Shown: positions 9,611-60,705, counted from the first letter of the stretch. The stretch is DNA of 64,000 bases from an uncultured virus (IMG/VR IMGVR_UViG_3300030107_004098) (IMGVR_UViG_3300030107_004098); one strand, 5' to 3'. Made by a program: numbers and translations. The notes: generated from the letters alone by a model not told the origin.

Positions 9611-9847
9611 TTATACACCGCCGTAATTTTCAGCGCGTTCTTCTACATGTTCATGATATTTTTCATGACCTAATAGAAATAATCCTGCCTCTTTTTTATT
9701 ACCAATAAAAGATTCTAAGCAGACAGGGCAGGTAACTTTAACCATTTCTGCTTCAAAATATACTCCAATATCAGTTGCGTAAGTAACAATTTCACCTTCT
9801 GTGAATAAATGTTCTGGACCCCAATCATCCCAAGTAATATTAATCAC
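9611..9847 (-). CDS. C2H2-like zinc-finger protein
   Basis: CPVC...GHEKYH. Confidence 0.55.
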   Translation of the reverse strand: MINITWDDWGPEHLFTEGEIVTYATDIGVYFEAEMVKVTCPVCLESFIGNKKEAGLFLLGHEKYHEHVEERAENYGGV

Positions 9848-10439: not shown

Positions 10440-10629
10440 CTACCTCTTTATGCATTTGTAGGTTTGCTACAATTGACCGCCATAAATGCCAGTTCTTAAT
10501 TACGGGTATTTCGCTAAACGATAATAAGGCTTCCCTTATTCCGCAATTTGGGCATATGTCGGTTTTATTGTCCCATCTGCTAATTGCACTATGTTCAGTG
10601 TATTCAATTGAGCAGATAGGACATTTCAA
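10348..10629 (-). CDS. zinc-finger protein
   Basis: CPIC...SRWDNKTDICPNCGIREA. Confidence 0.6.
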   Translation of the reverse strand: MKCPICSIEYTEHSAISRWDNKTDICPNCGIREALLSFSEIPVIKNWHLWRSIVANLQMHKEVVDNGTKEKETKTQRRSKKVHSGAKRKNKKK

Positions 10630-12131
10630 CCTAACAACTCCTGTAGATTTTTAAATTCACTAGGTCCATGTTTATCGGTCCTTAGACGAATAAATCTAGG
10701 AAACCTTAGACCGACGTTTCCATCTTGGTCTTGTGTTACAATATCTGCATGAACTTCCATTATAGTTACGTCTCGATTATTATCGTAATAGTCGTGGACT
10801 ACCAATAAATCTTCTTCTGTAAAACCAGTTCCTACTGAACCAACACTAATTACATTATCTCCAATCATTACTCCTAGTTCATAAGAACCATAATAACCGG
10901 CTCTTTTACCTGTTCCCATAGTCGCATTCATTACAATACAATCTAAATCTACTAGAGCAGGTTTATGTTTTAACCATGAACGCTTACCCGGTTCATATGT
11001 TTGTTCTACACCTTTAAGGACTAATCCTTCATATCCATCTTTAATAGCCTTAGTGTAAGCATTTTTGATTTCTTCCTCACCAGTTACAATTTCCGTATCT
11101 GTAATATTTACATTAGGGAAGTGCATACGAATAGTATCTAACCTATTACCATAACCGAAGTTATATGTATCTTGTTTGTTGAATGTTAGAATATCAAAAA
11201 TAATAGCCTTAACCGCTACACGATTACGCACTTGTTCTGTTTTACCATGAATGCGAGGCATAATCTCCTTGAACTCAAGAACATTTCCTTCACTATCAAT
11301 AGGCACAATTTCCCCATCAAGAATAAACTCATCAAACTCTTCACCCCAAGATTCAACATTAAGGTCTGCAAACTTCTCTGTAATATCTACACCTTTACGG
11401 TTAAAAATACATACATACCCATTTTCATCCCTATGAAACTGAGCGCGAATACCATCATACTTTACATCAGCATAATAAGTTCCTGTTAATGTCTTGGCGG
11501 TTTTAGCCAATTGAGGTTGAACGTAACTACCCGGTTCAGGTATCATTAGTTCCCCTACACCATTACCAAGACACACTTCATCAATAATAGTATTAAGATT
11601 ATTGAACTTAAGTGCGGTCTTGAAATCTCCTGTTGGGATAAGATACTTCTTTTGCAGGGATTTTTTAGTTACATTATCCCCTGCACCGTTTCTCTTTTGG
11701 TTTATCACAACTGCCGTATACCACTTCTTTTCTAGTTTACCCATATTACTGAAACGTTCCATGAATATTAGCCTAGCGGTTACTATATCTTCTGCAATAG
11801 ACAGTGGGTGAAAGGCATCATATAAACTATAGTCAATACAATCACCGGCATCAATTCCAAACTCTTCAAGTAGTTCGGGAACTCCACCAAAATCATCTAC
11901 TAAATCCTGTAGTCCTTCTTGTTCTAGCCCTAGTTCATCAGCAATATGTGGTAAGAGGTTCTTTGCTCCTAAACCTACACTACTGAACTTATCTGTTAGT
12001 GTGTGATAAAACATAGACCAATCCTTTGATAAATCATCATCAGCAACAATACTGTTAACAATTTGTGTGGGAGTCATATTAAGATATGATTCCATCTTTT
12101 CTGCAAAATCACTCATCAACATTTGTTTCAC
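10626..12131 (-). CDS. lig: ATP-dependent DNA ligase
   Basis: KYDGIR, ILDGEI, FDIL, EGLVLK, WLKHK, GSVGTG, LRFPRF. Confidence 0.95.
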   Translation of the reverse strand: MKQMLMSDFAEKMESYLNMTPTQIVNSIVADDDLSKDWSMFYHTLTDKFSSVGLGAKNLLPHIADELGLEQEGLQDLVDDFGGVPELLEEFGIDAGDCIDYSLYDAFHPLSIAEDIVTARLIFMERFSNMGKLEKKWYTAVVINQKRNGAGDNVTKKSLQKKYLIPTGDFKTALKFNNLNTIIDEVCLGNGVGELMIPEPGSYVQPQLAKTAKTLTGTYYADVKYDGIRAQFHRDENGYVCIFNRKGVDITEKFADLNVESWGEEFDEFILDGEIVPIDSEGNVLEFKEIMPRIHGKTEQVRNRVAVKAIIFDILTFNKQDTYNFGYGNRLDTIRMHFPNVNITDTEIVTGEEEIKNAYTKAIKDGYEGLVLKGVEQTYEPGKRSWLKHKPALVDLDCIVMNATMGTGKRAGYYGSYELGVMIGDNVISVGSVGTGFTEEDLLVVHDYYDNNRDVTIMEVHADIVTQDQDGNVGLRFPRFIRLRTDKHGPSEFKNLQELLG

Positions 12132-12354
12132 CCTCCATAGATTTTAGGGCATCATTATAGTATACCCATGCTAAACTAACATGGTTTGCAGTTATTCTTT
12201 CACTGTCTGTTTTAGTATAATTTAATATACTTTTAATAAATTCTTCCATAAATTCTTGTGTGCGATGAGCAATTGCTTCTCGCGCTTCTGCCTTAAACTG
12301 CCTATCGGGAATACACCCAGCAATAATTCTCTTTACTTCTCTTTCGCTAACCAT
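12109..12354 (-). CDS. archaeal histone-fold protein
   Basis: VKRII..DRQFKAEAREAI..EFMEEF..ERITANHVSLA follows the three-helix histone-fold pattern. Confidence 0.7.
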   Translation of the reverse strand: MVSEREVKRIIAGCIPDRQFKAEAREAIAHRTQEFMEEFIKSILNYTKTDSERITANHVSLAWVYYNDALKSMEGETNVDE

Positions 12355-12719
12355 TTTTCCATCTCCTTTTTGTTATAAAAATACTTTAATATTTTATTAT
12401 CTAATCCTGTAATTATAAATACTGCTCCCATGATACTGTTTACAGAAATCACCTGATACTTACCAGACACGGTAAGTGTTTCAACTGTTGGTGTAATACC
12501 ATACATTCTACTACTTTCAAATGATACCCGTTGAGCGTTATCCTTTATCCACTTAATTATATGTGGTTCTTGAACTTCAACCCACATGGGTCCATCAAGT
12601 TCCAATTCTCCGGTTTGATTGCATACATTACATTCTTTACCATCACAGATTGGACACTTAATACTTAATACGTTTACAGGAAATCTAACAGTATTTACTC
12701 TTCCTCCGATGTTAGACAT
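12333..12719 (-). CDS. DnaJ-type zinc-finger hypothetical protein
   Basis: CPICDGKECNVCNQTG. Confidence 0.55.
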   Translation of the reverse strand: MSNIGGRVNTVRFPVNVLSIKCPICDGKECNVCNQTGELELDGPMWVEVQEPHIIKWIKDNAQRVSFESSRMYGITPTVETLTVSGKYQVISVNSIMGAVFIITGLDNKILKYFYNKKEMEKWLAKEK

Positions 12720-13168
12720 ATTTCCTCAGTCCTCGATAAATACTCTTCACCATCTACTTTGAACCAACGCATACTTTCTTTATTACCTAGTACTATTGCC
12801 TCATTAAGAATTGGTTTTTGAGTATTAATAGTCCTCCAATCGGTTCCGCTAAAATACGCTTTACCGAATGGGTGGGTATGAATCCAACACTTAATTGGAA
12901 TCTTCATACCTGATACTTTTTCGTTCTTATAATCTACAAATACTCCTGAACCTTTACTAATAAATAGATTGTAGTCGTTATCTACAATTACGCTTACCTC
13001 TAGTTCGGTGAGATAATCAGTTGATACTTGCCAGATTATATCCAAAAAATATGGGTCATAAAAACTCCCTTCACATAAATCAAAGGCTTCTTCTATTAAA
13101 GCCTTACAAAAATCCCAATCACATGTTGGGTGAACTATTCCTTTATTCTTATATTCTAATTCTTCCAT
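12695..13168 (-). CDS. JAB/MPN+ (JAMM) metallo-isopeptidase
   Basis: Upstream Glu (LEV) plus WIHTHPFGKAYFSGTD = HxH-x7-S-x2-D. Confidence 0.88.
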   Translation of the reverse strand: MEELEYKNKGIVHPTCDWDFCKALIEEAFDLCEGSFYDPYFLDIIWQVSTDYLTELEVSVIVDNDYNLFISKGSGVFVDYKNEKVSGMKIPIKCWIHTHPFGKAYFSGTDWRTINTQKPILNEAIVLGNKESMRWFKVDGEEYLSRTEEICLTSEEE

Positions 13169-13440
13169 TATTCTTCCTCTCCTTTAAATTCGAACCCATA
13201 GGATTCTAGTTTTGTTTGATTCTTATCCTGTCCAAATAGGACATTGTGAATCTTGTTAATTAATTCCTCTTCATTATTATGAGTCGCCTCAATAATCCGA
13301 TTAAGAATCTTAAGTTCTTTTTGATAATCACTCATCCCAAATCCCTCCACAATTACTGCATTCGGGTTGGTTGGTTTTCCAATCAACAAACATATAATAT
13401 CCACATACATAGCATCTATTTTTATCTTCCATTTAATCAC
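13168..13440 (-). CDS. hypothetical protein with PIP-box-like motif
   Basis: QTKLESYGF near C-terminus; coupled between E1 and JAB. Confidence 0.55.
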   Translation of the reverse strand: MIKWKIKIDAMYVDIICLLIGKPTNPNAVIVEGFGMSDYQKELKILNRIIEATHNNEEELINKIHNVLFGQDKNQTKLESYGFEFKGEEE

Positions 13441-14015
13441 CCATTATATGTGGCGTGTTTCTTTACATCTTCACCATTAAACCATCTTTGAACCCATTGA
13501 GCGCCATAACCTGCTGCTACTACCTGCATAAAATGAACACCTGTAGTATCTCCTTCCCATGAATCGCCTTGGCAACTAAAAGAACCATCCGGTCCAGCAG
13601 TAAATGACGAATATAACTCTGCACGTTCTAATGATGAAATAAGAGCAGCGTTTCTACCTTGTGCTCTTAGGTCTAACCAATTAATGTTATGAGAAGCATA
13701 TAATGTTCTCCTAACTGCAAGATTATCTGCACAACAAACAACTAGGTCAAATCCTTTTACTTGCTTCATAGTTAGAACCTTGTATGGTTCTCCAGTTACT
13801 GTAGAATATCTATCATCCATAACTTTAACCTTGAACTTTTCAACATCTTCTTCATCGAAGTTTTGGTATGTTATATTCTTTATTTCTACTACATCAGGGT
13901 CATATACTGTAATATTGTATAGTCCTGTTTTGTCCAATAGGGGTATTAAGAAACTCCCAATACCACCTGCTCCGATAATCATAATCTTTCTCTTCTTATT
14001 CTTTCTCTTAGCCAT
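13437..14015 (-). CDS. ThiF/MoeB/E1-like adenylating enzyme
   Basis: IIGAGGIGS, YDPDVVEIKNITYQNF, CADNLAVR, WLDLRAQG, Cys in GSFSCQ. Confidence 0.9.
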   Translation of the reverse strand: MAKRKNKKRKIMIIGAGGIGSFLIPLLDKTGLYNITVYDPDVVEIKNITYQNFDEEDVEKFKVKVMDDRYSTVTGEPYKVLTMKQVKGFDLVVCCADNLAVRRTLYASHNINWLDLRAQGRNAALISSLERAELYSSFTAGPDGSFSCQGDSWEGDTTGVHFMQVVAAGYGAQWVQRWFNGEDVKKHATYNG

Positions 14016-14661
14016 TTCTAATCACCTTTAAATGTCTTTTCAAGCGAGGGAGGCTTACTCCCATTTTTTCACAGACCTGCGCTTGAGTCAAATCTGAATA
14101 TTCGTAAAGTATTGCGGAATATAATCCGCGTGTAATCGTGTAACGTTCTTCCATTTCTGTTATGAACTCTTTACCTGCTTCGGATAGTTCGTTACCAAAA
14201 AATATTATTGGACGAACATCAAATTCCTCTGCATTATTTTCACGATAAAAGAAATGCTTAACCTTCTTTACATTGTTAAACACTTTATTTTTATCAACGC
14301 CTATAAACGCACACATCTTATGAATGTTATACTCGGCTTGAGTTTGTTGTAATACATAATATGTTACAGTTGTAAACCTAATATTTTGTTCCATGTTTCT
14401 AAAGAACAAATGTTTATTTAACGTATTATATACTTTAATACATTCATTTCTGTAATCTTGTAATCTAAATTCATTTAATAATATATCAAGGGGTGCAAAA
14501 TCACGATTTGTTCTGGTAAGGAGATTTTGTGTCTTTTCACCACGTATTGTAAATATTCGTGATACTGCGAGCAACCCACAATTATTACATTCATATAATT
14601 CTATACTTGGAACATATTGTAGGTTTGTTGATTCGCAATTTTCACAAGGCATCCCAATCAA
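14008..14661 (-). CDS. TFIIB/TFB-like transcription factor
   Basis: N-terminal CENC...CNNCG zinc ribbon; C-terminal LTQAQVCEKMGVS HTH like the TFB BRE-binding helix. Confidence 0.7.
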   Translation of the reverse strand: MIGMPCENCESTNLQYVPSIELYECNNCGLLAVSRIFTIRGEKTQNLLTRTNRDFAPLDILLNEFRLQDYRNECIKVYNTLNKHLFFRNMEQNIRFTTVTYYVLQQTQAEYNIHKMCAFIGVDKNKVFNNVKKVKHFFYRENNAEEFDVRPIIFFGNELSEAGKEFITEMEERYTITRGLYSAILYEYSDLTQAQVCEKMGVSLPRLKRHLKVIRNG

Positions 14662-15799
14662 ACCTTCCGGCTAAATCAGAATCTTTTGTGATTCTATCAA
14701 GATAACTTCTTACTGTACTAACGTATGAACCTAGAACATTATCATTCATTACGGCCATAGCCCTAGCAGCGTATTGGTCACCTTTAGCGGCTCCACTCAT
14801 CATATTATCAATACAAATTGGTCCAATTAATCCTACTTCATCATCAACGTTTAATTTGTTTAGTTTTACTAGGCTGTTATTACCTGCTCCTTTTTGTAGC
14901 ATGTAGGTAGATACGTCTTGAACGCCTCGCTTCATACCATTATCTGCAATAATCCAATCTGTTAACTTACCTTGAATTGCTAGTGCGAGTTGAGCCTCTT
15001 GGTCTTTGGATGCTTTGAACTTAATTGTTTTAACCTGTTTGTAGTTCTTAGCCATTTGGTCCAGTAGTTCCATAGCCCTCTTTTCTACATTTTCTGCTTG
15101 TCTGTTTTGAGACATAAATGCTTTAATTACTGCAATCTGTGCTTCTGATGCTCTATTACCACCAAGAGTATATACTAACTCTTCGGGGCTAATTGCATAG
15201 AACTTACCCCTACGGTCATCTTTAAGATAACTATTTACGAATTGTTTTAACTCTCTTAGTGTAATATCATACCAAAAGGCATCGTTTAGTTCTAAAGCAA
15301 AATCTTCCGGTCCTACTTGAGCGACGTTTAATCTGCACTCAGACAATTCACCCTTATCATTAAAGTATTTATAAGGCACTCTATTTTCAAGAACATAACT
15401 TAACTCCATAGGCATTTTAACACATCGAGTTAAATATTCATCTAGTGCTTTCCAACCTTCATCATCGGCATCCACATATACTGAACGCATTAATACTCTA
15501 GTTACTACGGTCATAATATCATTATAATTACACCTGAAACCATTAACGGTATATCTATTACCGACCTTTCTTACTGCTATTCCATAGCCTTTTACTGTAA
15601 TTAGAGAACCTTCTGTTTTTGCTGCTTTTCCAACCGTAGATACTATAACATTACGAATTGCTTTGTATGTTGGGTCTTCCCCTCTATCATTTCTACGATG
15701 CCTTGTAGGGTATACAGTAAAGGTTCTATCGTCATTTCCGTCTATTTGTATATTAGTATATGTGTTATAATCGCTTGGACTTCTAACTCTAATTAACAT
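14642..15799 (-). CDS. hypothetical protein (candidate E2-like Cys domain at C-terminus)
   Basis: 385 aa ORF upstream of TFB/E1; GPICID motif; function not established. Confidence 0.55.
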   Translation of the reverse strand: MLIRVRSPSDYNTYTNIQIDGNDDRTFTVYPTRHRRNDRGEDPTYKAIRNVIVSTVGKAAKTEGSLITVKGYGIAVRKVGNRYTVNGFRCNYNDIMTVVTRVLMRSVYVDADDEGWKALDEYLTRCVKMPMELSYVLENRVPYKYFNDKGELSECRLNVAQVGPEDFALELNDAFWYDITLRELKQFVNSYLKDDRRGKFYAISPEELVYTLGGNRASEAQIAVIKAFMSQNRQAENVEKRAMELLDQMAKNYKQVKTIKFKASKDQEAQLALAIQGKLTDWIIADNGMKRGVQDVSTYMLQKGAGNNSLVKLNKLNVDDEVGLIGPICIDNMMSGAAKGDQYAARAMAVMNDNVLGSYVSTVRSYLDRITKDSDLAGRFDWDAL

Positions 15800-20463: not shown

Positions 20464-20516
20464 ATTTAATTCTCCTTTTTTGGTAATTTACAGAGATACC
20501 AACTCTAAATAATAGG

Positions 20517-20590
20517 TGGGTCTAGTGGGATTTGAACCCACGACCAACGGGTTAAAAGCCCGTCGCGCTACCTTACTGCGCCATAGACCC
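20517..20590 (-). tRNA. tRNA-Lys(UUU)
   Basis: GGGTCTA acceptor stem, anticodon arm ACGGG-CTTTTAA-CCCGT, GGTTCAAATCC T-arm. Confidence 0.93.
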
Positions 20591-20596
20591 AAAAGA

Positions 20597-20671
20597 TGCT
20601 GAATACGGGATTTGAACCCGTGTCCACGGAATGAAAACCCGCGATGATGGACCTAACTACACCAATTCAGC
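20597..20671 (-). tRNA. tRNA-Glu(UUC)
   Basis: GCTGAAT/ATTCAGC acceptor, loop TTTTCAT, ACGGG-TTCAAAT-CCCGT T-arm. Confidence 0.88.
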
Positions 20672-20686
20672 GTTTTGAATAATAAG

Positions 20687-20768
20687 TGCTGGAAGTAGGA
20701 TTCGAACCTACGAAACATTTTGTAATGGGACTTAAGCCCATCGCCTTTGACCACTCGGCTATTCCAGC
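20687..20768 (-). tRNA. tRNA-Leu(UAA)
   Basis: GCTGGAA/TTCCAGC acceptor, ATGGG-CTTAAGT-CCCAT, long variable arm, GTTCGAATC. Confidence 0.93.
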
Positions 20769-21866: not shown

Positions 21867-22082
21867 TTACTCTTCCAAATCGTCGCCACCCACAATTGCT
21901 TGTGTTAGAACGACTTCGTTAACATCGTTGAAGTTAACATTACCCAATTCTTCACGACTAACGAGTTCTCCGTCAACGTAAGCCCAATGGGTAGGGTGTT
22001 CAATAATTTGTTCAAGTGCGCCTTCTGCGCTCATCATAAGTTCTGTGTGTCCTGTCTCATTCAATATAGTTACTTTTACCAT
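21867..22082 (-). CDS. ubiquitin-like beta-grasp protein precursor (SAMP/ThiS/MoaD-like) ending GG-DDLEE
   Basis: MVKVTIL...VDGELV...VVLTQAIVGG plus 5-residue extension; GGTGA RBS puts ATG at 22082; TTATATA box at 22139-22145. Confidence 0.8.
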   Translation of the reverse strand: MVKVTILNETGHTELMMSAEGALEQIIEHPTHWAYVDGELVSREELGNVNFNDVNEVVLTQAIVGGDDLEE

Positions 22083-22192
22083 TTTTTTCACCTTGTTTTA
22101 GTTTAAGCCCTTCGGCATATTGTACTACGTTTAAGTGGTATATAACCGTCACGCTGCACCGTATTTTAAGCATTTTGTTAAGGAATTTCACC

Positions 22193-26290: not shown

Positions 26291-26345
26291 TTTTTTCACC
26301 TTTTACAATGTTGCCCCATCACAGGACAATTAATTCCCCCAATTA

Positions 26346-26386
26346 GAGTATATAAGGTACGTCCTGCAAAGCGGAGTACCATATGG
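26346..26386 (-). promoter_or_regulatory. conserved promoter cassette
   Basis: GAGTATATAAGG...CAAAG...CCATATGG. Confidence 0.75.
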
Positions 26387-26405
26387 TAGTAATTTGTAAT
26401 ACCCC

Positions 26406-27022
26406 AAAAAAATAAAAAAAATAAAAACAGGAAATCAGGAGCGTAAACACGTTCATTCAAATACGATTTTTACAGGTTATCGGCCGATTCCCGCACTATC
26501 CATATGAGGTGAGTAAGGTGCAATACTCCATCATTCCCACGGTGGAAAAGAAGGTGGGGTCTTAATGGTTTAAGATTAAGAAATTACTCATTTTACAGTT
26601 CTTTCGCAGACGGCGTTCACATATCTGTCTTTTAAGGCCGGTGTGTAATCTTTTACCCCGTAAAGGTTGCGCGGTAAGGCTAGATGAGGTTACATCGACA
26701 CTTACAAATTTCACCGGATTCCTATGCATTCATGTTCGTATACATTTGAATATGACGGCTACTTTAACTCACCACAAAAAGGCTCTTACTCCTAATTGCT
26801 GCCACTAACTACCCGCTAAGGTAATCCCGCTATTAAATCGGTCACAAATACATCCTTTGATTATTACGATGCTTAATCCTCGGTGGGAAAAATAAATTGC
26901 TTTTGGACACTATATCCAATGGGGCAGGTGATTGTCTTAACAATGCTTCACACTGTTTATTCGACACACGCGCGAATCCCATTCAATGCGCTAACGCGCC
27001 ACCACATGACCGGCTGAGATAC
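26406..27022 (-). ncRNA. candidate ~600-nt structured non-coding RNA
   Basis: Begins at cassette promoter, no minus-strand ORF of 60 aa or more, many hairpins, ends in U-tract. Confidence 0.55.
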
Positions 27023-27038
27023 TTATTTGGTCAATATA

Positions 27039-27078
27039 TAGTATATAAGGAACAACCACAAAGCGTAGTTCCATATGG
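27039..27078 (-). promoter_or_regulatory. conserved promoter cassette
   Basis: TAGTATATAAGG...CAAAG...CCATATGG. Confidence 0.75.
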
Positions 27079-27159
27079 TTCATTTTTCTAGGCGCAGTGA
27101 AATACAAGGCAACGCGAATAAAAATAATAAATTTGTGGTATTTTTACTTGTATTGAGCA

Positions 27160-27212
27160 AGCAAAAAATAACCCCAGATGGGGAAGGAGGGGTTTTACCC
27201 CCTCCCTCCGAA
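27160..27212 (-). terminator. GC hairpin with U-rich tail downstream of the 27226 stop
   Basis: GGAAGGAGGGG-tttta-CCCCCTCCCTCC. Confidence 0.5.
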
Positions 27213-28317: not shown

Positions 28318-28614
28318 TTATTCCACCCTCTTTTCTACAATCTTATATTCCCAATTTCTGACTGCTTCAGTTAGGTCGTTCAATAGTGGTCTTCCACTAC
28401 CTCTAATTGCACCTTTTATGGTAATTGCGAGGTCAATTGCTTGTAGGCTAATTCTATCTTTTATTTCCTGTGCTTGATTCATGGCTTTTTCTTTAGTCAT
28501 AAATAGACCAATTATCTCCATGTTATCCGGAGTTTCAATGCTACCTGCACCTAATCTCCACGGCAATCTTCTTCTTGTTACGTGTAATTCGTATACATAC
28601 TGTGTGTTGTTCAT
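28318..28614 (-). CDS. hypothetical protein (leaderless, cassette promoter)
   Basis: ATG at 28614, promoter box starts at 28633. Confidence 0.7.
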   Translation of the reverse strand: MNNTQYVYELHVTRRRLPWRLGAGSIETPDNMEIIGLFMTKEKAMNQAQEIKDRISLQAIDLAITIKGAIRGSGRPLLNDLTEAVRNWEYKIVEKRVE

Positions 28615-28632
28615 ACTATATTCGTTTATTTA

Positions 28633-28672
28633 GAGTATATAAGGAACGACTCCAAAGTGTAGTTCCATATGG
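28633..28672 (-). promoter_or_regulatory. conserved promoter cassette
   Basis: GAGTATATAAGG...CAAAG...CCATATGG. Confidence 0.75.
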
Positions 28673-28879
28673 TAGTCATTCATCTTCGTCACGTCCTGTT
28701 CGAATATTAATGCGGTAGTGCTGGTTTAAAATCTTCTTACACCCATATGGTTCTATTTAGTTGATACGTTAGTTAAACCCAATTTCGGGGTATTAGTACC
28801 ATATGGTTCCGATTTGCGTGAACTTATTTCGTTATTAAAATAAAATATCTAAACATCATATTTAGACACCAATCTTTAT

Positions 28880-29272
28880 ATGGGACATTCAAACATCTTA
28901 TTTCGAGGCAAAAGCATGTACACTTTTAACTTTAATTTAGGCGGAGAACCAAATATAGCCCCCGCACACGATTTTATGCCATTAATAGAAGCCCTAAAAG
29001 GGATAACAGAGGACTGGCAATCTTTCTATAACTTATATAAAAAATTCGCGCCGCCTCCAATAGAAAACCAAGTACAAATACAATCATGGTTTAATGAGAT
29101 TAAAGATGCGTTAGATGAAGTCGTTGAATTATATAATAAGATACCTGAAGCGCCAACATTAGAAGGCATACACAATACAGAAGATGCTGCAGATATGTTA
29201 TCTAAATTTAATGAAATAAATAACATAATTAAATCAGTTAAATCAGATGACGACAATCATATGTATAATTAA
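28880..29272 (+). CDS. hypothetical protein, first gene after strand switch
   Basis: TTTATA box at ~28875 suggests real start MYTFNF at 28916. Confidence 0.6.
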   Translation: MGHSNILFRGKSMYTFNFNLGGEPNIAPAHDFMPLIEALKGITEDWQSFYNLYKKFAPPPIENQVQIQSWFNEIKDALDEVVELYNKIPEAPTLEGIHNTEDAADMLSKFNEINNIIKSVKSDDDNHMYN

Positions 29273-31655: not shown

Positions 31656-32452
31656 TGTGGTGGAACATTCTTAAGGTAGCAGGTAAAGAACGTTCAAGAT
31701 TTTTTAGAGGAATTAACATTCCCAAAGAAATAGGTAACATGCGCCCAATACAAACAAGAATCAGACCAAATGTAATTCTTTCAAGACACGCAATACAAAG
31801 AATGCAAGGCAAAGACGTTAGTAGAGAAACCGATACAGGTGTTAGAGCCGGAGAAACAATGTATAGAGATTTAGAAGGAGTGTGGTATTTTGAAGGGGCT
31901 ATGGATGCAATCCAAGAAGGAATAGAATCGGGTAGATTTAATTCTTTACTATCAGATAAATATGGTAAAAAAGGTCAAGCAGTAGTTAGGCTCGCCAGTG
32001 TAGGTCACGGAAGAATGGGTTGGGGAGTAAAAAAACATAGAGATTTAGATGATACATTAATAGTTACTACATATTTAGATTATAGAGGTTTACCACAAGG
32101 AGCCGGGGCTAACACGATTTCCTTTAATAATATTTCTACTCCCCTACATCCTATTAATCCACCCCGTATGCAATCAGAATCATGGGTTAATCTTAGAAGA
32201 AGGGCATATCAAACCCGTACTCGACCCACCCCACAAACTGAAACCTTTAAAGAAAAAGTTACTACAGAAGCAGTTAAAATTCCAGAGTTTGAAGAAAAAT
32301 ATTTAGAGCAATTATTTTCCGAACCCACTCCAACAAATACTTTAGAGTTAAGAAGTAAATTAAATCCGTGGCAAAATAAATCACAGGGTTCAAAACGAGA
32401 TAGATTCTTTATTAAATTACTATACAATGCACAAACAAAGTGGGAGTTCTAA
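31655..32452 (+). CDS. tagged protein with possible RelE/BECR-like RNase motif
   Basis: MWWNILK; LSRHAIQRM...LIVTTY. Confidence 0.6.
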   Translation: MWWNILKVAGKERSRFFRGINIPKEIGNMRPIQTRIRPNVILSRHAIQRMQGKDVSRETDTGVRAGETMYRDLEGVWYFEGAMDAIQEGIESGRFNSLLSDKYGKKGQAVVRLASVGHGRMGWGVKKHRDLDDTLIVTTYLDYRGLPQGAGANTISFNNISTPLHPINPPRMQSESWVNLRRRAYQTRTRPTPQTETFKEKVTTEAVKIPEFEEKYLEQLFSEPTPTNTLELRSKLNPWQNKSQGSKRDRFFIKLLYNAQTKWEF

Positions 32453-33024
32453 TGTGGTGGGATATAATCAAATCAAAATGGATGGGCCAAATGTCCGACG
32501 ATAAAAAAGAATTACTCGAACATAAACCTAAAGTTAAAATTGATATTCCCAAAATGTCTTACCCCGACGGCAGCAAAGAAGTCAAAGAAGTAATCAAGGT
32601 AATGAAAGAAAAACCAGTGCCTAAAGATATTATGGACAAACACGATAAAGATTCCGACCAAGTATTATTTGATATAGTGGATGCAAAAAGTTCTGATTAT
32701 GAAGATTTTACAAAAGACGTTAACTCGTACGTAATGCGAGAGAAAGTAAAATATGCAAGACAAAGACCAAATGAAGTTTCTGATATTGTAGAAAGTAAAA
32801 CAGAAACAGATGATACTCCGGCTTTTCCTTCGGGTCACGCAACTTTAGTTTATGCTTTAGAAAAAATGTTATCCAACAAATACCCAGAAAAGAAAAAGGA
32901 ATTAAATAAAACTGCAGAAATGTTAGCATTAGCCCGTGTTCAGTTAGGTTCTCATTATCCTTCGGACATAAAAGCCGGAAAGAAACTAGGTTATCTTATA
33001 GCAAAGAAATATTTAAAAGATTAG
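32452..33024 (+). CDS. tagged PAP2-family phosphatase
   Basis: MWWDIIK; K..RQRP, FPSGHA, RVQLGSHYPSD. Confidence 0.85.
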   Translation: MWWDIIKSKWMGQMSDDKKELLEHKPKVKIDIPKMSYPDGSKEVKEVIKVMKEKPVPKDIMDKHDKDSDQVLFDIVDAKSSDYEDFTKDVNSYVMREKVKYARQRPNEVSDIVESKTETDDTPAFPSGHATLVYALEKMLSNKYPEKKKELNKTAEMLALARVQLGSHYPSDIKAGKKLGYLIAKKYLKD

Positions 33025-36140: not shown

Positions 36141-36470
36141 ATGCTAGAAGTTAAGCCCGAAACAGAAGTAAAGGTTGAAACAGCAGTAGCCTCCGGCGAC
36201 CCATGTTGTGAAACTGCTAGAGAAAAATTAATAGACCTTGTATTTGAACATGGTATAGTTGTTGGTAAACATGGTAGAAAATACTCACAAGAAGAAACAA
36301 TTAGTAAGGTAAGAAAAGAACCCTGTGAAAAAATACATGATTATTTATTGAACATACAGAATAATTTTTTTAGAACTAGACCCAAAGTAGCAGAAGAAGC
36401 AAATGAGATTCTTAACGAATGGTTAGAATGCGAAGGTGAAGATTGGATATATGCGCTACCAGAGGTATAA
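36141..36470 (+). CDS. hypothetical protein (degenerate tag ISWKQML, possible ATT start at 36126)
   Basis: In-frame upstream codons after GGTGA read I-S-W-K-Q. Confidence 0.65.
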   Translation: MLEVKPETEVKVETAVASGDPCCETAREKLIDLVFEHGIVVGKHGRKYSQEETISKVRKEPCEKIHDYLLNIQNNFFRTRPKVAEEANEILNEWLECEGEDWIYALPEV

Positions 36471-36471
36471 T

Positions 36472-36906
36472 ATGAATTTTAAATTACTACCAGAAGACAC
36501 TTTTCGCAGTATGGTAACTAATTTTACTTCAGCAATAGACAAAGGTTATCCTAATGTTGTTTCTCCACTTACGTATTATGCTTATGTCGCAGAAGATTCT
36601 GTATTAGGTTACTCATCCTTTTCCGATATGGGTGATTTTTACTTCGTAGGCAATACATATATCCAACCTGAAAATCGTGGTCAAGGAATATACACTAAAT
36701 TACTTTCTAATCGCAACGCACATCTTTCTGATAAACCAAAAATTACTTTAGTCAACCCAATAGAAGGTACAGATGTTGCAGTGCTTTTTAGACAAGTTAA
36801 TAAACAAGGTGGGATTAAGGTAGAGTCATACGAGGAAGTGAAAGATATTATGTGTCGAGATATGTATAATAAACTAAACACGCTTCCTTTGTTTATTTAT
36901 AGGTGA
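36472..36906 (+). CDS. GNAT acetyltransferase
   Basis: YIQPENRGQGIY acetyl-CoA motif A; GAGGT RBS. Confidence 0.8.
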   Translation: MNFKLLPEDTFRSMVTNFTSAIDKGYPNVVSPLTYYAYVAEDSVLGYSSFSDMGDFYFVGNTYIQPENRGQGIYTKLLSNRNAHLSDKPKITLVNPIEGTDVAVLFRQVNKQGGIKVESYEEVKDIMCRDMYNKLNTLPLFIYR

Positions 36907-45955: not shown

Positions 45956-48403
45956 ATGAGCGAAGAAATAATAAAACTAGTAGATAACGCTTTTAGGAGA
46001 TTAGGAGTAAATAGAGGAATGGCCGGTTCAGCAAACAAATTAGTAGAACTAATAGGAGGCGAAGTTACTCCTGAAGAAATAACCAAAGCAGTATCGGAAA
46101 TAAGGGACCAAAGATTACATGTTTTTAATACTTTTATACAATATGTAAATTACGGGACTGAAGAATTAGAATATAAACAAGTCGTAAACTATAACGTATT
46201 ACATGATATATTAAGACAAAAGCATAGTGACTTAGATAATTATATATTGGGTAACCCATATAAAAGAGCAACAGTTAAAAAATTAATTGTTGATTTAGAC
46301 AAAGAAAACTATTCTCCAAAAATACCTATTCCATTTTTTACACCCAAAGAGCGTCAGTTATTTATTACTGTTATTGACGGTGTTACTAGAGACAGAAGAA
46401 CATCTACAAAAATAGATTTAACTAAATTTGCTTCTAAACTTACTACAACTAGAGCAACTGACCTTAGAACTCGTAACAACACATATAAATATTGGAACCA
46501 AGTAAAGGGTGAATTTAAAACTATGATTGATGCGATAAATGCTTCAGGTACTATACCTCTTAGTAACGGTAAAACCATTAAAGAAATTCCTAGTTATATT
46601 ATTACTATGGGACCGCTAATCATTAAAAAAATAATTAATCCTAACCACCCAATTTTATTAGATGTTTTACGACATAAATATATTAGCGATGAATTAAACG
46701 ATATAATAGAAAGCGAATATGTAGCAATAGGACAATTTGATGACGAGGGTGGACAAACAGGGTATGGTGCGGAAATAAGTCAACGAGATACGACTTTAAC
46801 AGATACATCACCATTACAACAATTAAGAGATAATATTATTTCTATGTCTGATGTTTGGTTATCCGAAGAAGAAAATATTTCTTTAGACCCATTATTAACA
46901 ATTATTTTACAGGACGAAGAATTTCCGACAGTAATGAATGCAGAACAAATAGAAACAAATGTAGAAAAAGTTATTGCTCAACTACAATCAGGTATTGATG
47001 CAGAAGATTTAGAATTCCTTGCACAGTCATTTAATAAATACAAAAAAATAATTAGTGATAATCTTAATAGATACCAACCTATTAGTCGTAAAACATACAG
47101 TTTTGCTATCATGGATGGTCCAGAAATATCGCAGAAAGTATTAACCGAAGCACTAGAAGATACACCAGCAGTTAAACCTACTTATGAGTATCTTGTAGCG
47201 GAATACACTGGGGATAAATATACAATAACAACAAAAATCGCTAAAAATTATTCTAAAATGATTAATGAAATAAATAAATCAACTAATGAAGTAATCAGAT
47301 TCTTTACTGACCATTACGATGTCGAAAAATACATTACTGAAGATAGTAAAACTGTTTATTCTGTACCTCAACAACAAAAACATGCTAAAGCAAAAAGAGT
47401 TACAGGTTTAGGTACTCCCAGTATTCCTATACGTAGAATACCCGAAGGGCAGATTGGAAAAAATACTGCGGGATTAACGGATGCATTAACAAGATATTAT
47501 TTTACTGCTCTTACTGAACAAAATATTAACTTGGACGACTTACCTAATTTTACAAAAACAAAACAGTATAATGCATTAAAGCGACTATTAGCCAACGACC
47601 CCGTTACTTTAGTCACTAAAGAAATAGCAAGTGGTAGAAGTCGCCCGAAGTTTAGTATGGCGCAATTTCAGGATATGAATAAATTTTTGAAAATAATAAA
47701 ACAGGGATATATACAAAGATATGACGCAAATAATTCGGTCTACGCGGATAAATTTATTTCAGGCATAATTAATTTAATACGACCTATAGGTATACAAAGG
47801 TTTAGACCTATAGAAAGAAATTTATCAATTTTATTAGGAGCAATATTACACCAATCTTGGGAAAAATCTGTCGCTGCTAAGGACGACCCTGAATCACCGA
47901 AATTTAGAGGGAAAACATTAGAATATTGGAATAACACATATCACTCAGCAGAAGAGGATAAAAAAGATTTATACCTATCTTTTGCTAATTTACATAGATT
48001 ATTTAATGAACCAATTATGGTAGAATACTTACAATCTGAAGGTGCTGTAACTGGTCAAACTCAAGAAAATTCAGCCTATTACATTGTATATGGACAAAAT
48101 GGAATAGTGGATAATCTGACTAAAGTTTCAGAAAACTTACCAAAACTTGCCTCGGCTGTATTGTATTCTTACGATTTAATTAGAAAACACAATAACCTAC
48201 CAATTTATAGTGGGTATTTAGATGTAAACTCTCCTGAAGATATAGAATATCTAATTGATACTATTGATAAAAAATATAGTTTGGATGTTTATGGTAAAGA
48301 CGTAGATACTATTGTTAAGTCCCATATGACCATGAAAGAGTTAGTATCTACATTGGGTATTCCTCACGAAGTAGTGTATCATATTAGGGGAATGTTTAGA
48401 TGA
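45956..48403 (+). CDS. large hypothetical protein
   Basis: 815 aa ORF. Confidence 0.75.
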   Translation: MSEEIIKLVDNAFRRLGVNRGMAGSANKLVELIGGEVTPEEITKAVSEIRDQRLHVFNTFIQYVNYGTEELEYKQVVNYNVLHDILRQKHSDLDNYILGNPYKRATVKKLIVDLDKENYSPKIPIPFFTPKERQLFITVIDGVTRDRRTSTKIDLTKFASKLTTTRATDLRTRNNTYKYWNQVKGEFKTMIDAINASGTIPLSNGKTIKEIPSYIITMGPLIIKKIINPNHPILLDVLRHKYISDELNDIIESEYVAIGQFDDEGGQTGYGAEISQRDTTLTDTSPLQQLRDNIISMSDVWLSEEENISLDPLLTIILQDEEFPTVMNAEQIETNVEKVIAQLQSGIDAEDLEFLAQSFNKYKKIISDNLNRYQPISRKTYSFAIMDGPEISQKVLTEALEDTPAVKPTYEYLVAEYTGDKYTITTKIAKNYSKMINEINKSTNEVIRFFTDHYDVEKYITEDSKTVYSVPQQQKHAKAKRVTGLGTPSIPIRRIPEGQIGKNTAGLTDALTRYYFTALTEQNINLDDLPNFTKTKQYNALKRLLANDPVTLVTKEIASGRSRPKFSMAQFQDMNKFLKIIKQGYIQRYDANNSVYADKFISGIINLIRPIGIQRFRPIERNLSILLGAILHQSWEKSVAAKDDPESPKFRGKTLEYWNNTYHSAEEDKKDLYLSFANLHRLFNEPIMVEYLQSEGAVTGQTQENSAYYIVYGQNGIVDNLTKVSENLPKLASAVLYSYDLIRKHNNLPIYSGYLDVNSPEDIEYLIDTIDKKYSLDVYGKDVDTIVKSHMTMKELVSTLGIPHEVVYHIRGMFR

Positions 48404-49587
48404 TTACCTTTCCCAATAAGATATATTCTGAGGCCGAGGTAATCCAATTATACGAAGAATCTTACTCTAAATGGAAAGATAAGAATAAAACCGATGGAAC
48501 ACCACTTGCTAAAACTAGAACACCTAGAGCGCAACAACCATTATTTCCCGCATTTACTAGAAAAACTCCTGACGGGTATTATGTTGCTTTAGATGGAGAT
48601 ATTTTAGCGGGTTGGGCAGGTTGGAGAGCCGTAGATGAAAATCTATATTTAACAGCAGGTTCCTTTACTGCTCCCGATTATAGAGGGCAGGGCGTTCAAA
48701 GCAATCTTTGGGTTAAAAGAAACTCTATATTTGCTGGAAAATCTGTTATTACTATTACAAACAAAAAAGAAAAAAAGTGGGTTAATTTTACTAGCCGATA
48801 TTATCCCGAAGTTACTATAGACAAAATACCAGAAAAGTATAGAGCAGACGTTCAGGACGCTTTAGATTTTTATGAAAAAAGAGGTAAAGGTCCTAAAGTT
48901 TTTTATAGAGGACCTACAGAAGACAGTGCTATGCAAAAGGCATGGGGTATCATTAAAGCAGATGTTGACTTTAAGTTATTTATTCCTGACTACATAAAAA
49001 GCGAAACCACTGGAGGGATATACGATAGAAGGACGGGAAATATAGAAATTTACCCGTCATCCGTATATAAATATCTAAAGGCTAAATTACAAAGAAAACC
49101 TAAAGATGAAGAATTACAGAAATTTGTAGTTGCTCTTATTAATCACGAAGCAGGTCACGCCGCCGACTATTCAGTAAATCCACACCTTAATATGTTTTGG
49201 GATGAACATGAAGTAGATTCTGCTAGAGAATGGGTAGCATTTCAAAGTCAACACCCTAAAGACCCTTATCTTGCTATGGTTGGTTTTTTAAAACACCCAT
49301 ATACGTATAAATTAGTAGGTCCGAGAGGACAACCAGCAAGGGGTGTAGATTACATAACAGATAATGTTACACAAGAACATCATCCCGGACTACCGACTAG
49401 CATTAAAAAAATAGTTGCATATGTAAATAAACATGCTAAAACTCCTAGACAAAAAAATAAATTAGCCACGTTAGAATTATCCCAAAGAGGTAGAAAAGTA
49501 AGGAGAAATTTTCCCACTAATATATTGGGAGCAGTACGAAGATACGGAAAACAACATTTAGATTTTCTTAAAACGTTAAGGTGGTAA
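48400..49587 (+). CDS. GNAT + HExxH metallopeptidase-like fusion with internal tag
   Basis: PDYRGQGV; internal MQKAWGIIKA; LINHEAGH. Confidence 0.75.
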   Translation: MITFPNKIYSEAEVIQLYEESYSKWKDKNKTDGTPLAKTRTPRAQQPLFPAFTRKTPDGYYVALDGDILAGWAGWRAVDENLYLTAGSFTAPDYRGQGVQSNLWVKRNSIFAGKSVITITNKKEKKWVNFTSRYYPEVTIDKIPEKYRADVQDALDFYEKRGKGPKVFYRGPTEDSAMQKAWGIIKADVDFKLFIPDYIKSETTGGIYDRRTGNIEIYPSSVYKYLKAKLQRKPKDEELQKFVVALINHEAGHAADYSVNPHLNMFWDEHEVDSAREWVAFQSQHPKDPYLAMVGFLKHPYTYKLVGPRGQPARGVDYITDNVTQEHHPGLPTSIKKIVAYVNKHAKTPRQKNKLATLELSQRGRKVRRNFPTNILGAVRRYGKQHLDFLKTLRW

Positions 49588-58253: not shown

Positions 58254-58622
58254 GTGGATTGGAAAATTATTCTAAAGAGAAAATTATCTAATTCTGAACA
58301 TGCAAACGTTATAAGTATTCTCTTAGAAGATTTAAAACAAGATGGAATAACATTAGAAAACGCAGGTATTCAATGGTCTGAATTTGTTATAGGTGATGAT
58401 TTTACATTTCCTAAAAATTATAGAGTAGAACTAGAAGGACATTCTGCTATCTTTTATTTAGATTTTACATTCCCTAATATGAATCCTACGATTAGACATA
58501 TTAGCGGCGACAAAGATTTAACAGATTTAATACGTGAATATCTCTCTACTGAACAAGATTTAATAAATAGAATGATACGTGCTATATCAAAAGATACCAC
58601 AGGAGATGTTGCATATGGGTAA
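58254..58622 (+). CDS. tagged hypothetical protein
   Basis: GTG start after AGGTGG: MDWKIILKR. Confidence 0.65.
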   Translation: MDWKIILKRKLSNSEHANVISILLEDLKQDGITLENAGIQWSEFVIGDDFTFPKNYRVELEGHSAIFYLDFTFPNMNPTIRHISGDKDLTDLIREYLSTEQDLINRMIRAISKDTTGDVAYG

Positions 58623-60705
58623 TAAATGGATGCCCAAATATAATGAATGTCGTTTATTATATCTAACAGCAAAAGAAGACCCAAAAACATATGGCGGTGA
58701 ATGGGCAAATCTAGTATCAGAAATAGAAGACCTGCTAACCGAGGATGAAAATTTTAAATCTATTATAGAATTAAGAATACCTCTTACTAGATTAAAACAA
58801 GCAAAGGATGTTACTACATCTCATGCTAAATTGGTATTAGATGTGTTGCAGGAAATAGCAAATACTCGTACTATACTAAAAGAAGACCAAACCAAATTAA
58901 ATACTTTCGTCATACCAAATAAACCAATGTATAGAATATTTGAAATTGACGATTTAAAAGAACTAAAAGGTTTTACCGGAGAATGGATTGTACAAGAAAA
59001 ATTCGACGGCCTACGTATTCAGATTCACAAATTAAAATCTGTTAAGATTTATTCATTTAATGGTAATGATATTACAGATAAATTTCCAAAACAAGTTAAA
59101 AGATTAGAGCAGGATGCTTTTCCTAAATGTATTTTAGATGCCGAAGCAGTTCTTTACAAAGATGATGAACCACTTCATAGGGCAGAAACTTTAGCCTATA
59201 TTAATAGAAAGGAAGGAAAGGCAGACATTAAAGTTCATGTATTTGATATACTTCGCCATCAAGGAGAAGACATTTATTTTAAAAAATTAGAAGAAAGAAT
59301 CATGACTTTATTTAAAGAATATTCTGCTCTTAGCGACGACCAAATACAATTTCCATCGAAGCGAGATACACGTTCTGCGGATTCATACGAGGAAATTGAA
59401 GATTATGCAAAAGAAATAATGGACAATCCTACAGCAGAAGGTGTTGTTATTAAGGATGCTAAGTCGTCATATATTGTTGGTAAAAAGAAAAATCCTAAGT
59501 GGGTTAAATGGAAAAAATTTGTAGATTTAGATTTAATAGTATTAGAAGCAAGAGAAAATAAAAACGGAACATATAGTTATACATTAGGTGCTGGACCAAT
59601 GGATGATGACGACCAATATACACCAGTAGTAGAACGTGAAGGTAAAAGATACTTAAAAGTCGGAAAGGCACTAAATACAACAGAAGAAGTAAAAGTAGGA
59701 GATATTATTAGAGTCAAGGTAGATGAGGTTCAATCAAACAAAAATGGGTTTTCTATTTATTCTGCTAAGTTTGTTGAGATACCCGAAGTAACAGAAGCGG
59801 AACGAATTATTACTCTTAAGTTCTTATCAGAAGGTAATAAAAAAATGCTATCAGAATATACTGTAGAAGCACTTAAGAAGTCATATGTTCTTACAGATAG
59901 TATTCATGGTGAGGCAATTATTAAGGGTTCTACGTCAATGGAAGGATTTATGTTTTACGGATTTGAGGATAATAATTTAATGGCTAAAAATGCTATGATA
60001 GATTTAGACCTATGGAAAGAAGAATTGGGTAATGTGTACCATAAAGACAGTGCTATGTTAATGACTTTAGTTAGTAATATGACTCAAGATAAATCATCTG
60101 TAACTGCAAAGGATATAATTAATCGTGCTAAAAATATGAATAACATATTATCTAGATTATTTAAATCTAAAGGCGAAGAACTAGAAAAAGATGTTACTAA
60201 CTTTATGCGAGAAAGAGGTAATGCTTATGGTATTTTATATGATAAAGCCTCTCGTAAGTTCTATAATGATGATAAAATAGAACTTAAAGAAGAACCAACC
60301 ACATTTGAATTATGGCGCAGAAAGGATAAAAATCTTAATTTTGTTATTAAGCACAAAGGCAAAGAATTAGTTTGGAGAATAGAACAAGAAGAAGATATTG
60401 ATTTGTATAACTTATTTGGTAAAGCAGATAAATTTTTAGCACAAATAGACGATTCTGCAGACAAAGTAAAAATTATATCTAAAGGTGGTGCTGTAATTGG
60501 AAGTCAACGAGACGGCTATCACGAATACATAATTGACTCAAAAATGTATGATGGGAAAATACACTTTAGGGTAGTGCCTATAGAAGACAGTAATAAATGG
60601 ATTGTTTGGACTGGGTATAAAACAAAACCCACAAGCAAAACTAGTGACGAAGGATTAGTAAATATCTACGACGATAAGTATAAAAAACTCAAGTTTTCTG
60701 ATTAA
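58579..60705 (+). CDS. second ATP-dependent DNA ligase-like protein in head module
   Basis: QEKFDGLR, ILDAEAV, VFDIL, EGVVIK, WVKWK, OB domain; extra C-terminal domains; start may be 58615 or 58627. Confidence 0.85.
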   Translation: MLYQKIPQEMLHMGNKWMPKYNECRLLYLTAKEDPKTYGGEWANLVSEIEDLLTEDENFKSIIELRIPLTRLKQAKDVTTSHAKLVLDVLQEIANTRTILKEDQTKLNTFVIPNKPMYRIFEIDDLKELKGFTGEWIVQEKFDGLRIQIHKLKSVKIYSFNGNDITDKFPKQVKRLEQDAFPKCILDAEAVLYKDDEPLHRAETLAYINRKEGKADIKVHVFDILRHQGEDIYFKKLEERIMTLFKEYSALSDDQIQFPSKRDTRSADSYEEIEDYAKEIMDNPTAEGVVIKDAKSSYIVGKKKNPKWVKWKKFVDLDLIVLEARENKNGTYSYTLGAGPMDDDDQYTPVVEREGKRYLKVGKALNTTEEVKVGDIIRVKVDEVQSNKNGFSIYSAKFVEIPEVTEAERIITLKFLSEGNKKMLSEYTVEALKKSYVLTDSIHGEAIIKGSTSMEGFMFYGFEDNNLMAKNAMIDLDLWKEELGNVYHKDSAMLMTLVSNMTQDKSSVTAKDIINRAKNMNNILSRLFKSKGEELEKDVTNFMRERGNAYGILYDKASRKFYNDDKIELKEEPTTFELWRRKDKNLNFVIKHKGKELVWRIEQEEDIDLYNLFGKADKFLAQIDDSADKVKIISKGGAVIGSQRDGYHEYIIDSKMYDGKIHFRVVPIEDSNKWIVWTGYKTKPTSKTSDEGLVNIYDDKYKKLKFSD

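Follow-up and report, generated by a model that had tools for sequence, protein, structure and literature searches.

A probable ubiquitin-like conjugation module encoded by a magrovirus-like virus of marine archaea

Does a virus of marine archaea carry its own means of tagging proteins with a ubiquitin-like modifier (Ubl)? The question is raised by a 64,000-nt stretch of DNA (the window) from the uncultured virus IMGVR_UViG_3300030107_004098, where a sequence-only reading had picked out genes for an E1-like activating enzyme and a JAB-type metalloprotease, lying among TFB, histone and ligase genes, and had proposed that the virus runs its own protein-tagging pathway. The run of open reading frames (ORFs) is real: its coordinates, order and strand are as that reading placed them, with all members on the minus strand and neighbours overlapping by 1–25 nt. 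Comparative genomics lends good support to a Ubl pathway run by the virus itself, and we favor, with moderate confidence, the reading that it encodes a Ubl conjugation module of its own. The gene set, motifs, predicted folds and co-occurrence are reported below; from these sequences and models we infer each chemical step, the E2 role and proteins as the end acceptors. The virus probably tags proteins itself, with a small Ubl, a minimal E1, a protease that trims and removes the tag, and a probable carrier enzyme.

The E1-like gene (13437–14015, minus strand) encodes a protein of 192 aa that matches Pfam ThiF (PF00899) at E 1.1e-17, with 64.4 bits against a cut-off of 28.1; the Rossmann domain with its GxGxxG loop, scoring above the family threshold, assigns it by sequence to the E1-like superfamily. 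Residues 7–107 align with E. coli MoeB in hhalign (probability 96%), and the viral D97-N98...R102 motif aligns with the CTDNVAVRN segment of MoeB; the Asp of this motif is a Mg/ATP-binding acidic residue. Across 35 aligned homologues, GxGGIGS, DPD, K46-N47, YQN, D97-N98, R102 and Cys148 of GSFSCQG are invariant. Homologues numbered 763, and the 120 listed were 179–205 aa in length. The window protein has no CxxC zinc motifs, no extra domains and no rhodanese domain. Its matches in PDB profiles (ThiF-type, MccB, UBA5, Uba1, Cap2, Uba4, MoeB, ThiF) covered only the first ~100 positions, PADLOC returned a Cap2-type E1-E2 match on the Rossmann part only (5.3e-10), and all NCBIfam equivalog scores fell below their cut-offs (score/cut-off: ThiF 52.8/275, MoeB 39.8/266, UbaA 31/450, PRTRC ThiF 42.2/144.75). 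Short ThiF-type proteins (183–223 aa) occur in many ESM Atlas clusters, nearly all of them viral, and it was these viral clusters that the E1 search returned. Judged by its residues, the protein is a minimal enzyme whose nucleotide-binding and Mg site is intact.

The E1 and JAB parts of the proposed pathway stood; the Ubl itself had not been located by the sequence-only reading, and it was found at a distance from both, not as the 90-aa ORF that separates them. A scan of the window for GG-ended ORFs gave a 74-aa ORF (21867–22091, minus strand), ~8 kb upstream of E1, that ends AIVGG followed by the 5-aa tail DDLEE. The same scan gave another GG-type ORF (9611–9847, ending YGGV), which had no Pfam match. 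Homologues of the 74-aa protein were present in 5/5 related virus records searched. Among database homologues, VGG was invariant in all 32 that were aligned (as AIVGG), with hypervariable residues after it, and was kept in 61 of 63 overall, the remaining 2 being visibly frame-broken; the tail in the 61 intact ones was 1–22 aa. It was likewise present in 49/49 virus loci, with a tail of 0 aa in 12, of 1–2 aa in 32 and of 4–9 aa in 5. The protein therefore reads as a tag precursor with a C-terminal Gly-Gly apparently masked by a removable tail. The mature Ubl would comprise residues 1–69, and Lys and Arg are absent from the vicinity of its C-terminus. Its AlphaFold 2 (AF2) model has a predicted beta-grasp fold (pLDDT 79.6), and two surface motifs, NETGHTEL and HPTHW, are strongly conserved. 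No PDB match was obtained by Foldseek with this model at E <= 0.001; the best structural neighbors were headed by MoaD, with ThiS, CysO and TtuB also listed and with Caldiarchaeum Ub among them.

Co-occurrence of E1, JAB and Ubl across related viruses was the check that the sequence-only reading had suggested, and the outcome was in its favor. Nineteen loci were found through E1, and JAB was present in 17/17 of those with downstream DNA; among the 49 loci found through the Ubl, E1 and a 385-aa protein (described below) were present in 46 and JAB in 44, every miss lying at a contig end. The two locus sets overlap, some contigs being common to both. The converse outcome, a Ubl missing from most genomes with E1 and JAB, was not what was seen: the Ubl was present throughout the related contigs that had enough DNA. 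Every related marine virus contig of sufficient span held the GG-ended beta-grasp protein, the 385-aa protein, a TFB-like factor, E1 and JAB, in the fixed order Ubl ... 385-aa protein, TFB-like, E1, variable spacer, JAB. Spacing was tightest between the 385-aa gene and E1 (median ~727 bp, matching the length of the TFB-like gene), and in some lineages only ~500 bp separate the 385-aa gene from the Ubl gene upstream of it. When 185,579 species genomes were scanned with the E1 profile, a scan that sees only relatives sharing two short motifs, 3 loci (L080, L081 and L082) were returned, all with the full magrovirus order (Ubl, ribonucleotide reductase [RNR], 385-aa protein, E1, JAB, Zn protein and ligase). 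They stand on contigs filed under bacterial metagenome-assembled genomes (Altibacter, Maricaulis) and are probably mis-binned viral contigs.

These data bear on the suggestion that the genes are chance neighbors and that E1 performs some other carboxylate adenylation on a non-Ubl substrate, as do MccB, PaaA and TcdA. The PDB profile matches to MccB, PaaA and TcdA have E-values similar to those of true E1s, and only the Rossmann half of the viral enzyme is recognizable. We consider this extremely improbable, given the strict co-occurrence of Ubl, E1 and JAB across relatives whose Ubl identity to that of the window falls to ~49%. The GG end with its disposable tail is in addition the signature of an E1 substrate, which speaks against a non-Ubl substrate.

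The JAB gene (12695–13168, minus strand) encodes a 157-aa protein with the motif E...HxHx7SxxD, and E57, H97, H99, S107 and D110 were invariant in 36/36 homologues (313 homologues were found in all), so that a JAMM/MPN+ zinc and catalytic site is predicted from the sequence. The Pfam Prok-JAB model gave E 0.0028 and 18 bits, under the gathering cut-off of 25, and one relative reached 18.6 bits; the family profile matched AMSH-type deubiquitinases across the motif (1.6e-4) and the Caldiarchaeum Rpn11-like protein at 0.048, and the PADLOC match was 0.032. Within the set, JAB is predicted to trim the tail and to undo conjugation. In the bacterial Bil system a JAB enzyme is described as pre-processing its Ubl (10.1101/2023.09.26.559546). 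In the virus its role is probably not limited to trimming, since all 12 of the 12 loci whose Ubl is tailless (ending exactly at GG) retained JAB, along with E1 and the 385-aa protein.

A JAB of this kind could also act on the host. The viral E1 or JAB might charge or strip host modifiers, including those of a Ubl-based defense, with no autonomous viral cascade involved, and JAB enzymes are described as removing Ubl marks in both the SAMP and the Bil systems (PMC4443979, PMC4895103, 10.1101/2023.09.26.559546). The placement of the module among early/replication genes and not among structural ones is in keeping with such interference. The virus, however, always brings its own Ubl (with conserved NETGHTEL and HPTHW) together with E1 and JAB, something that a virus acting on host modifiers would not need, and we regard interference as quite improbable. 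We know of no Ubl defense in these host archaea.

The candidate carrier is the 385-aa protein (14642–15799, minus strand), a member of a virus-restricted family with no family match in Pfam, PHROG, PADLOC or NCBIfam searches. In its AF2 model (pLDDT 82.8) residues ~233–385 form a candidate E2-like (UBC-fold) carrier domain with Cys329 in GPICIDN; the N-terminal 230 residues had no fold assignment. Cys329 stands in W-x-G-P-I-C-I-D-N after the last strand and before helix 339–351, a predicted placement between strand 4 and helix 2 of a UBC fold, for which the aligner gave no residue-level equivalence to the E2 Cys. We take the motif to resemble the E2 active-site G-x-I-C-L-D. The Cys was invariant in 40 sequences and was kept in 91/92 full-length representatives, the lone exception appearing frame-broken. 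The family profile search returned 199 representatives (50% identity) at E <= 0.001, and the 150 listed were of the same family and architecture or were fragments; across the family the E2-like domain is the C-terminal part of proteins of 385–480 aa. Foldseek of the model against the PDB gave no match at E <= 0.001, and ESM Atlas gave no usable match. The E2-less, SAMP-like system assumed in the sequence-only reading probably does not apply: the protein adjoining the TFB-like gene probably has an E2-like domain on the evidence of its model, although no E2 is detectable by sequence.

Several observations weigh against conjugation as the function of this gene set. The E2 fold assignment rests on Z <= 5.5, and the tool warns that such a Z may mean only a common arrangement of elements. 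The Pfam families UQ_con, RWD, UEV and Prok-E2 had no match in 40 members (E <= 10) nor in 24 divergent members, the 385-aa family profile had no match in the PDB at E <= 10, and UQ_con was not found in the 5 related virus records. An HPN motif upstream of the catalytic Cys is an E2 feature, and none was seen upstream of Cys329. On the side of E1, Cys148 is a putative equivalent of the catalytic Cys, because beyond residue ~107 the enzyme aligns with no known E1; in known cascades E1s carry an extra domain that recruits E2s, and by its sequence the viral enzyme is without a domain of that kind. As for the Ubl, the sulfur carriers MoaD and ThiS tie within 1 Z unit with ubiquitin-like modifiers as its structural neighbors, some sources (JGI) name its homologues "sulfur carrier protein ThiS", and in the window its gene is 8 kb from E1 with RNR and other genes between.

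Much of this would suit a Ubl that is a sulfur carrier only. E1 would adenylate the Ubl, a host persulfide donor would turn the Ubl into a thiocarboxylate for use by a host enzyme (e.g., for 2-thiouridine at tRNA position 34 or another thio-modification); JAB would do no more than mature or recycle the carrier, and the 385-aa protein would be unrelated. The best, sub-cut-off, NCBIfam scores of E1 are indeed those of the ThiF and MoeB models, MoaD heads the structural matches of the Ubl with ThiS, CysO and TtuB following, the JGI names point the same way, and the E2 is undetectable by sequence. Sets of E1, JAB and GG-carrier without an E2 are described as typical of sulfur pathways (Iyer 2006, PMC1779556). 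The window also has a tRNA cluster, Lys(UUU), Glu(UUC) and Leu(UAA) (20515–20768, minus strand), near the Ubl gene, and all three of these tRNAs read A-ending codons. The s2U34 modification (2-thiouridine at position 34) is carried by the tRNA-Lys(UUU) and tRNA-Glu(UUC) classes, to which the first two belong.

The tRNA connection to the Ubl, suggestive in the window, was dropped when relatives were compared: tRNA-Lys(UUU) was present in 3/42 and tRNA-Glu(UUC) in 2/42 related loci, i.e., sporadically, 15/42 loci had no tRNA at all, and the tRNAs of relatives were mostly Leu(UAA), Arg(UCU) and Met in place of the Lys/Glu set of the window. Nor was a cognate sulfur donor or acceptor gene found alongside. 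Among the 91 of 108 window ORFs scanned with Pfam there was no match to ThiG, MoaE, NcsA/TtuA-type, PP-loop thiolase, rhodanese or desulfurase proteins, in agreement with the sequence-only reading, which had seen no thiamine, molybdopterin or tRNA-thiolation genes; nor did the same sulfur partners have a match in a related 94-kb genome, where 22 ORFs covering its other 29 kb were searched. A host enzyme could serve in their place. The missing rhodanese domain and CxxC pairs of E1 also speak against a sulfur pathway, as does the retention of JAB in the 12/12 loci whose Ubl needs no trimming, and a Cys-bearing protein of candidate UBC-like fold is locked into the cluster. Conjugation is therefore favored: the scanned ORFs held no sulfur partner gene, tRNA-Lys/Glu are sporadic, JAB is retained, and a Cys-bearing, candidate UBC-fold protein is present. 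We hold the sulfur carrier to be an unlikely explanation, though one to be taken seriously because of the MoaD/ThiS-like fold matches and the lack of a canonical E2.

For conjugation, the preferred reading, the following order of steps is proposed. The 74-aa beta-grasp tag would be made with a short variable tail after the invariant VGG, and the JAB metalloprotease would cut off this tail and expose the Gly-Gly. The minimal E1 would then use ATP to adenylate the C-terminal Gly, and the tag would probably next form a thioester on Cys148, from where it would be handed to Cys329 in the E2-like domain of the 385-aa protein and placed upon lysines of viral or host proteins. JAB would additionally reverse the mark.

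What the targets may be is hinted at by a single contextual lead, the TFB-like factor (14008–14661, minus strand, 217 aa) whose gene is, in relatives also, always between the gene for the E2-like protein and E1. Chromatin, transcription, the proteasome and counter-defense, put forward in the sequence-only reading, would be candidate targets. Pfam with the window protein alone did not recognize TFIIB and gave only weak helix-turn-helix matches. The TFB label was nonetheless borne out by a profile built from 24 relatives, which matched human TFIIB at 5.9e-08 (profile 18–205 of 210 to chain 30–291) and the Pyrococcus TFB core at 1.5e-05; relatives gave sub-threshold Pfam matches to the TFIIB zinc ribbon and the TFIIB repeat, and the four Cys of the N-terminal CxxC...CxxC zinc ribbon are invariant in the family. 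Zinc ribbon and cyclin-fold core, the features of a TFB/TFIIB, are thus predicted through the profile. A far-reaching extension, which we consider distinctly unlikely, would be that viruses of Marine Group II archaea have a complete, self-contained Ubl cascade built round a viral TFB, with an E2 of a new class joined to a targeting domain, that marks transcription-initiation or chromatin proteins, of the host or of the virus, either for removal or for activation, in the course of taking over the archaeal RNA polymerase. If true, this would parallel on the viral side the SAMP-dependent TBP2 turnover of haloarchaea, and it would be an independent, radically miniaturized answer to E1-to-E2 transfer.

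The known system closest in its working is BilABCD, together with the Iyer–Aravind clusters, and the small E1 and JAMM enzyme are SAMP-like; by sequence the viral set is a member of none of these. BilABCD comprises the Ubl BilA, the E2 BilB, the JAB BilC and the E1 BilD (10.1101/2023.09.26.559546), and bacterial Ubl/E1/E2/JAB clusters are described by Iyer, Burroughs and Aravind 2006 (PMC1779556). BilABCD is reported from a bacterial defense island, whereas the viral set comes from a virus of archaea. The viral E1 is minimal (~185–190 aa in general, 192 aa in the window) and below every curated model cut-off; the viral E2-like domain is the tail of a 385–480-aa protein that resembles no E2 in sequence; between the E2-like gene and E1 stands an additional TFB-like gene; and the Ubl gene can be several kb off. 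Compared with the four genes of BilABCD, counterparts of Ubl, E1 and JAB are present and that of the E2 is a candidate at the level of fold only, and the genes are clustered, with interruptions by the TFB-like gene and, in the window, by RNR and others.

The SAMP system has no E2, whereas the viral cluster has a candidate E2-like protein locked in. The viral E1 scores 31 bits against 450 on the model of UbaA, the E1 of the Haloferax volcanii SAMP system (with HvJAMM1; PMC4443979, PMC4895103), and is without CxxC motifs; the SAMP modifier is described as serving also in sulfur transfer, for which no partner genes were found in the scanned viral ORFs. The ubiquitin/E1/E2/RING-E3/Rpn11-like operon of Caldiarchaeum subterraneum (PMC5654768, PMC3082918) is similar in being archaeal and in having a JAMM deubiquitinase within a cascade of eukaryotic type. 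Its Ub, E1, E2 and RING are recognizable by sequence; of the viral proteins only E1 is so, in its Rossmann half, and the viral set yielded no RING-type E3. Nidhogg viruses of Asgard archaea (10.1101/2021.07.29.454249) are likewise archaeal viruses with E1-like (ThiF) genes for which ubiquitin-type modification has been proposed. There the account is of E1 homologues only, with host Ub and E2 thought to be used, whereas here the virus has its own tag, protease and probable E2.

A description of a Ubl module for magroviruses was not found in the literature, annotations present only on genome maps being outside the reach of that search; the text of Philosof 2017 (main text and 2 supplements, figures not covered) and that of PMC10160649 have no mention of ThiF, JAB or ubiquitin. 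Most magrovirus genes are without an assigned function, and a conserved four-part Ubl module would give these viruses their first assigned pathway of this kind; leaving eukaryotic viruses aside, very few Ubl cascades encoded by viruses would stand beside it. The parts are all small (74, 157, 192 and 385 aa), and neither host nor virus would have to be grown to reconstitute this compact set in E. coli. Work with it could show the minimum of protein required for E1-to-E2 transfer, and whether viruses use Ubl tagging themselves, beyond its use against them as in Bil.

The remaining genes of the run have looser ties to the module. The 90-aa ORF between E1 and JAB (13168–13440, minus strand) had been a candidate Ubl and was rejected: it has no GG end and no family match, and tblastn gave only partial matches, in 4/17 related loci (L002, L004–L006). 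The E1–JAB spacer in relatives varies from 31 to 1637 bp, and by its sequence the ORF appears to be a poorly conserved filler of this spacer, neither a conserved part of the system nor a Ubl. Downstream of JAB is a 128-aa Zn-finger protein (12333–12719, minus strand) with an N-terminal CxxCxGxxCxxC zinc knuckle and weak PHROG matches only, to families of unknown function. It is present in most related loci, often downstream of JAB, and in several lineages up to ~3 kb from it; we regard it as a frequent JAB neighbor, for which this context does not imply membership of the Ubl system. Four compact relatives (L057, L061, L065, L067) have a further small ORF (52–75 aa, CxxC...H(x2-3)C) directly upstream of the E2-like gene, without counterpart in the window. 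The ORF taken for a histone (12109–12354, minus strand, 81 aa) is present where the sequence-only reading had placed it, and the histone label has behind it a sub-threshold Pfam match (CBFD_NFYB_HMF, E 0.0054, 17.4 bits against a cut-off of 21.4), conserved in closer relatives only; we list it as a histone-fold candidate. The ATP-dependent DNA ligase that follows (10626–12131, minus strand) is clear at Pfam 4.5e-35.

The window is part of a ~93-kb tailed, magrovirus-like virus of marine archaea, the likeness being to traits described in Philosof 2017 and not to a named magrovirus genome. That paper describes magroviruses as abundant worldwide, with uncultured Marine Group II archaea as hosts. 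Shared with group B magroviruses of that account are two ligases, one of them in the structural module, RNR, the tRNA-Leu/Arg of relatives and the 92–96 kb contigs of relatives. The window has two ATP-dependent DNA ligases, the replication-gene copy given above and a second, ligase-like gene in the structural block (58579–60705, plus strand, 708 aa, DNA_ligase_A_M 4.7e-27) between portal and prohead protease; a ligase in the structural module is given as a trait of group A and B magroviruses (Philosof 2017). Pfam identified replication-type genes (family-B DNA polymerase, PD-(D/E)XK and HNH nucleases, class II RNR) and structural genes (terminase, portal, prohead protease, SU10-type capsid protein). 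No close relative was found among GenBank phages, blastn of the region being without a match and tblastn with E1 giving only distant N-terminal matches, for example to genes of crAss-like phages annotated "thiamine biosynthesis protein".

At ~28.7 kb the orientation of the genes changes from minus to plus, and the GC skew switches at the matching place. The region at approximately 26300–27200 and 28600–28900 includes a stretch of raised GC (0.40) with only short dubious ORFs, close to this flip, and may represent a control region or an origin. Many ORFs (e.g., those ending at 12695, 13168, 8716, 10067 and 19164) end in E-E-E or alike before the overlapping start of the downstream gene; this looks like a purine-rich ribosome-binding site within the last codons of the upstream gene. 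In the plus-strand block, weak GNAT acetyltransferase matches were obtained at 48400–49587 and 36436–36906, one of them with a 395-aa protein whose gene immediately precedes that of the terminase, and a PAP2-superfamily phosphatase-like protein (3.7e-10) is encoded at 32440–33024.

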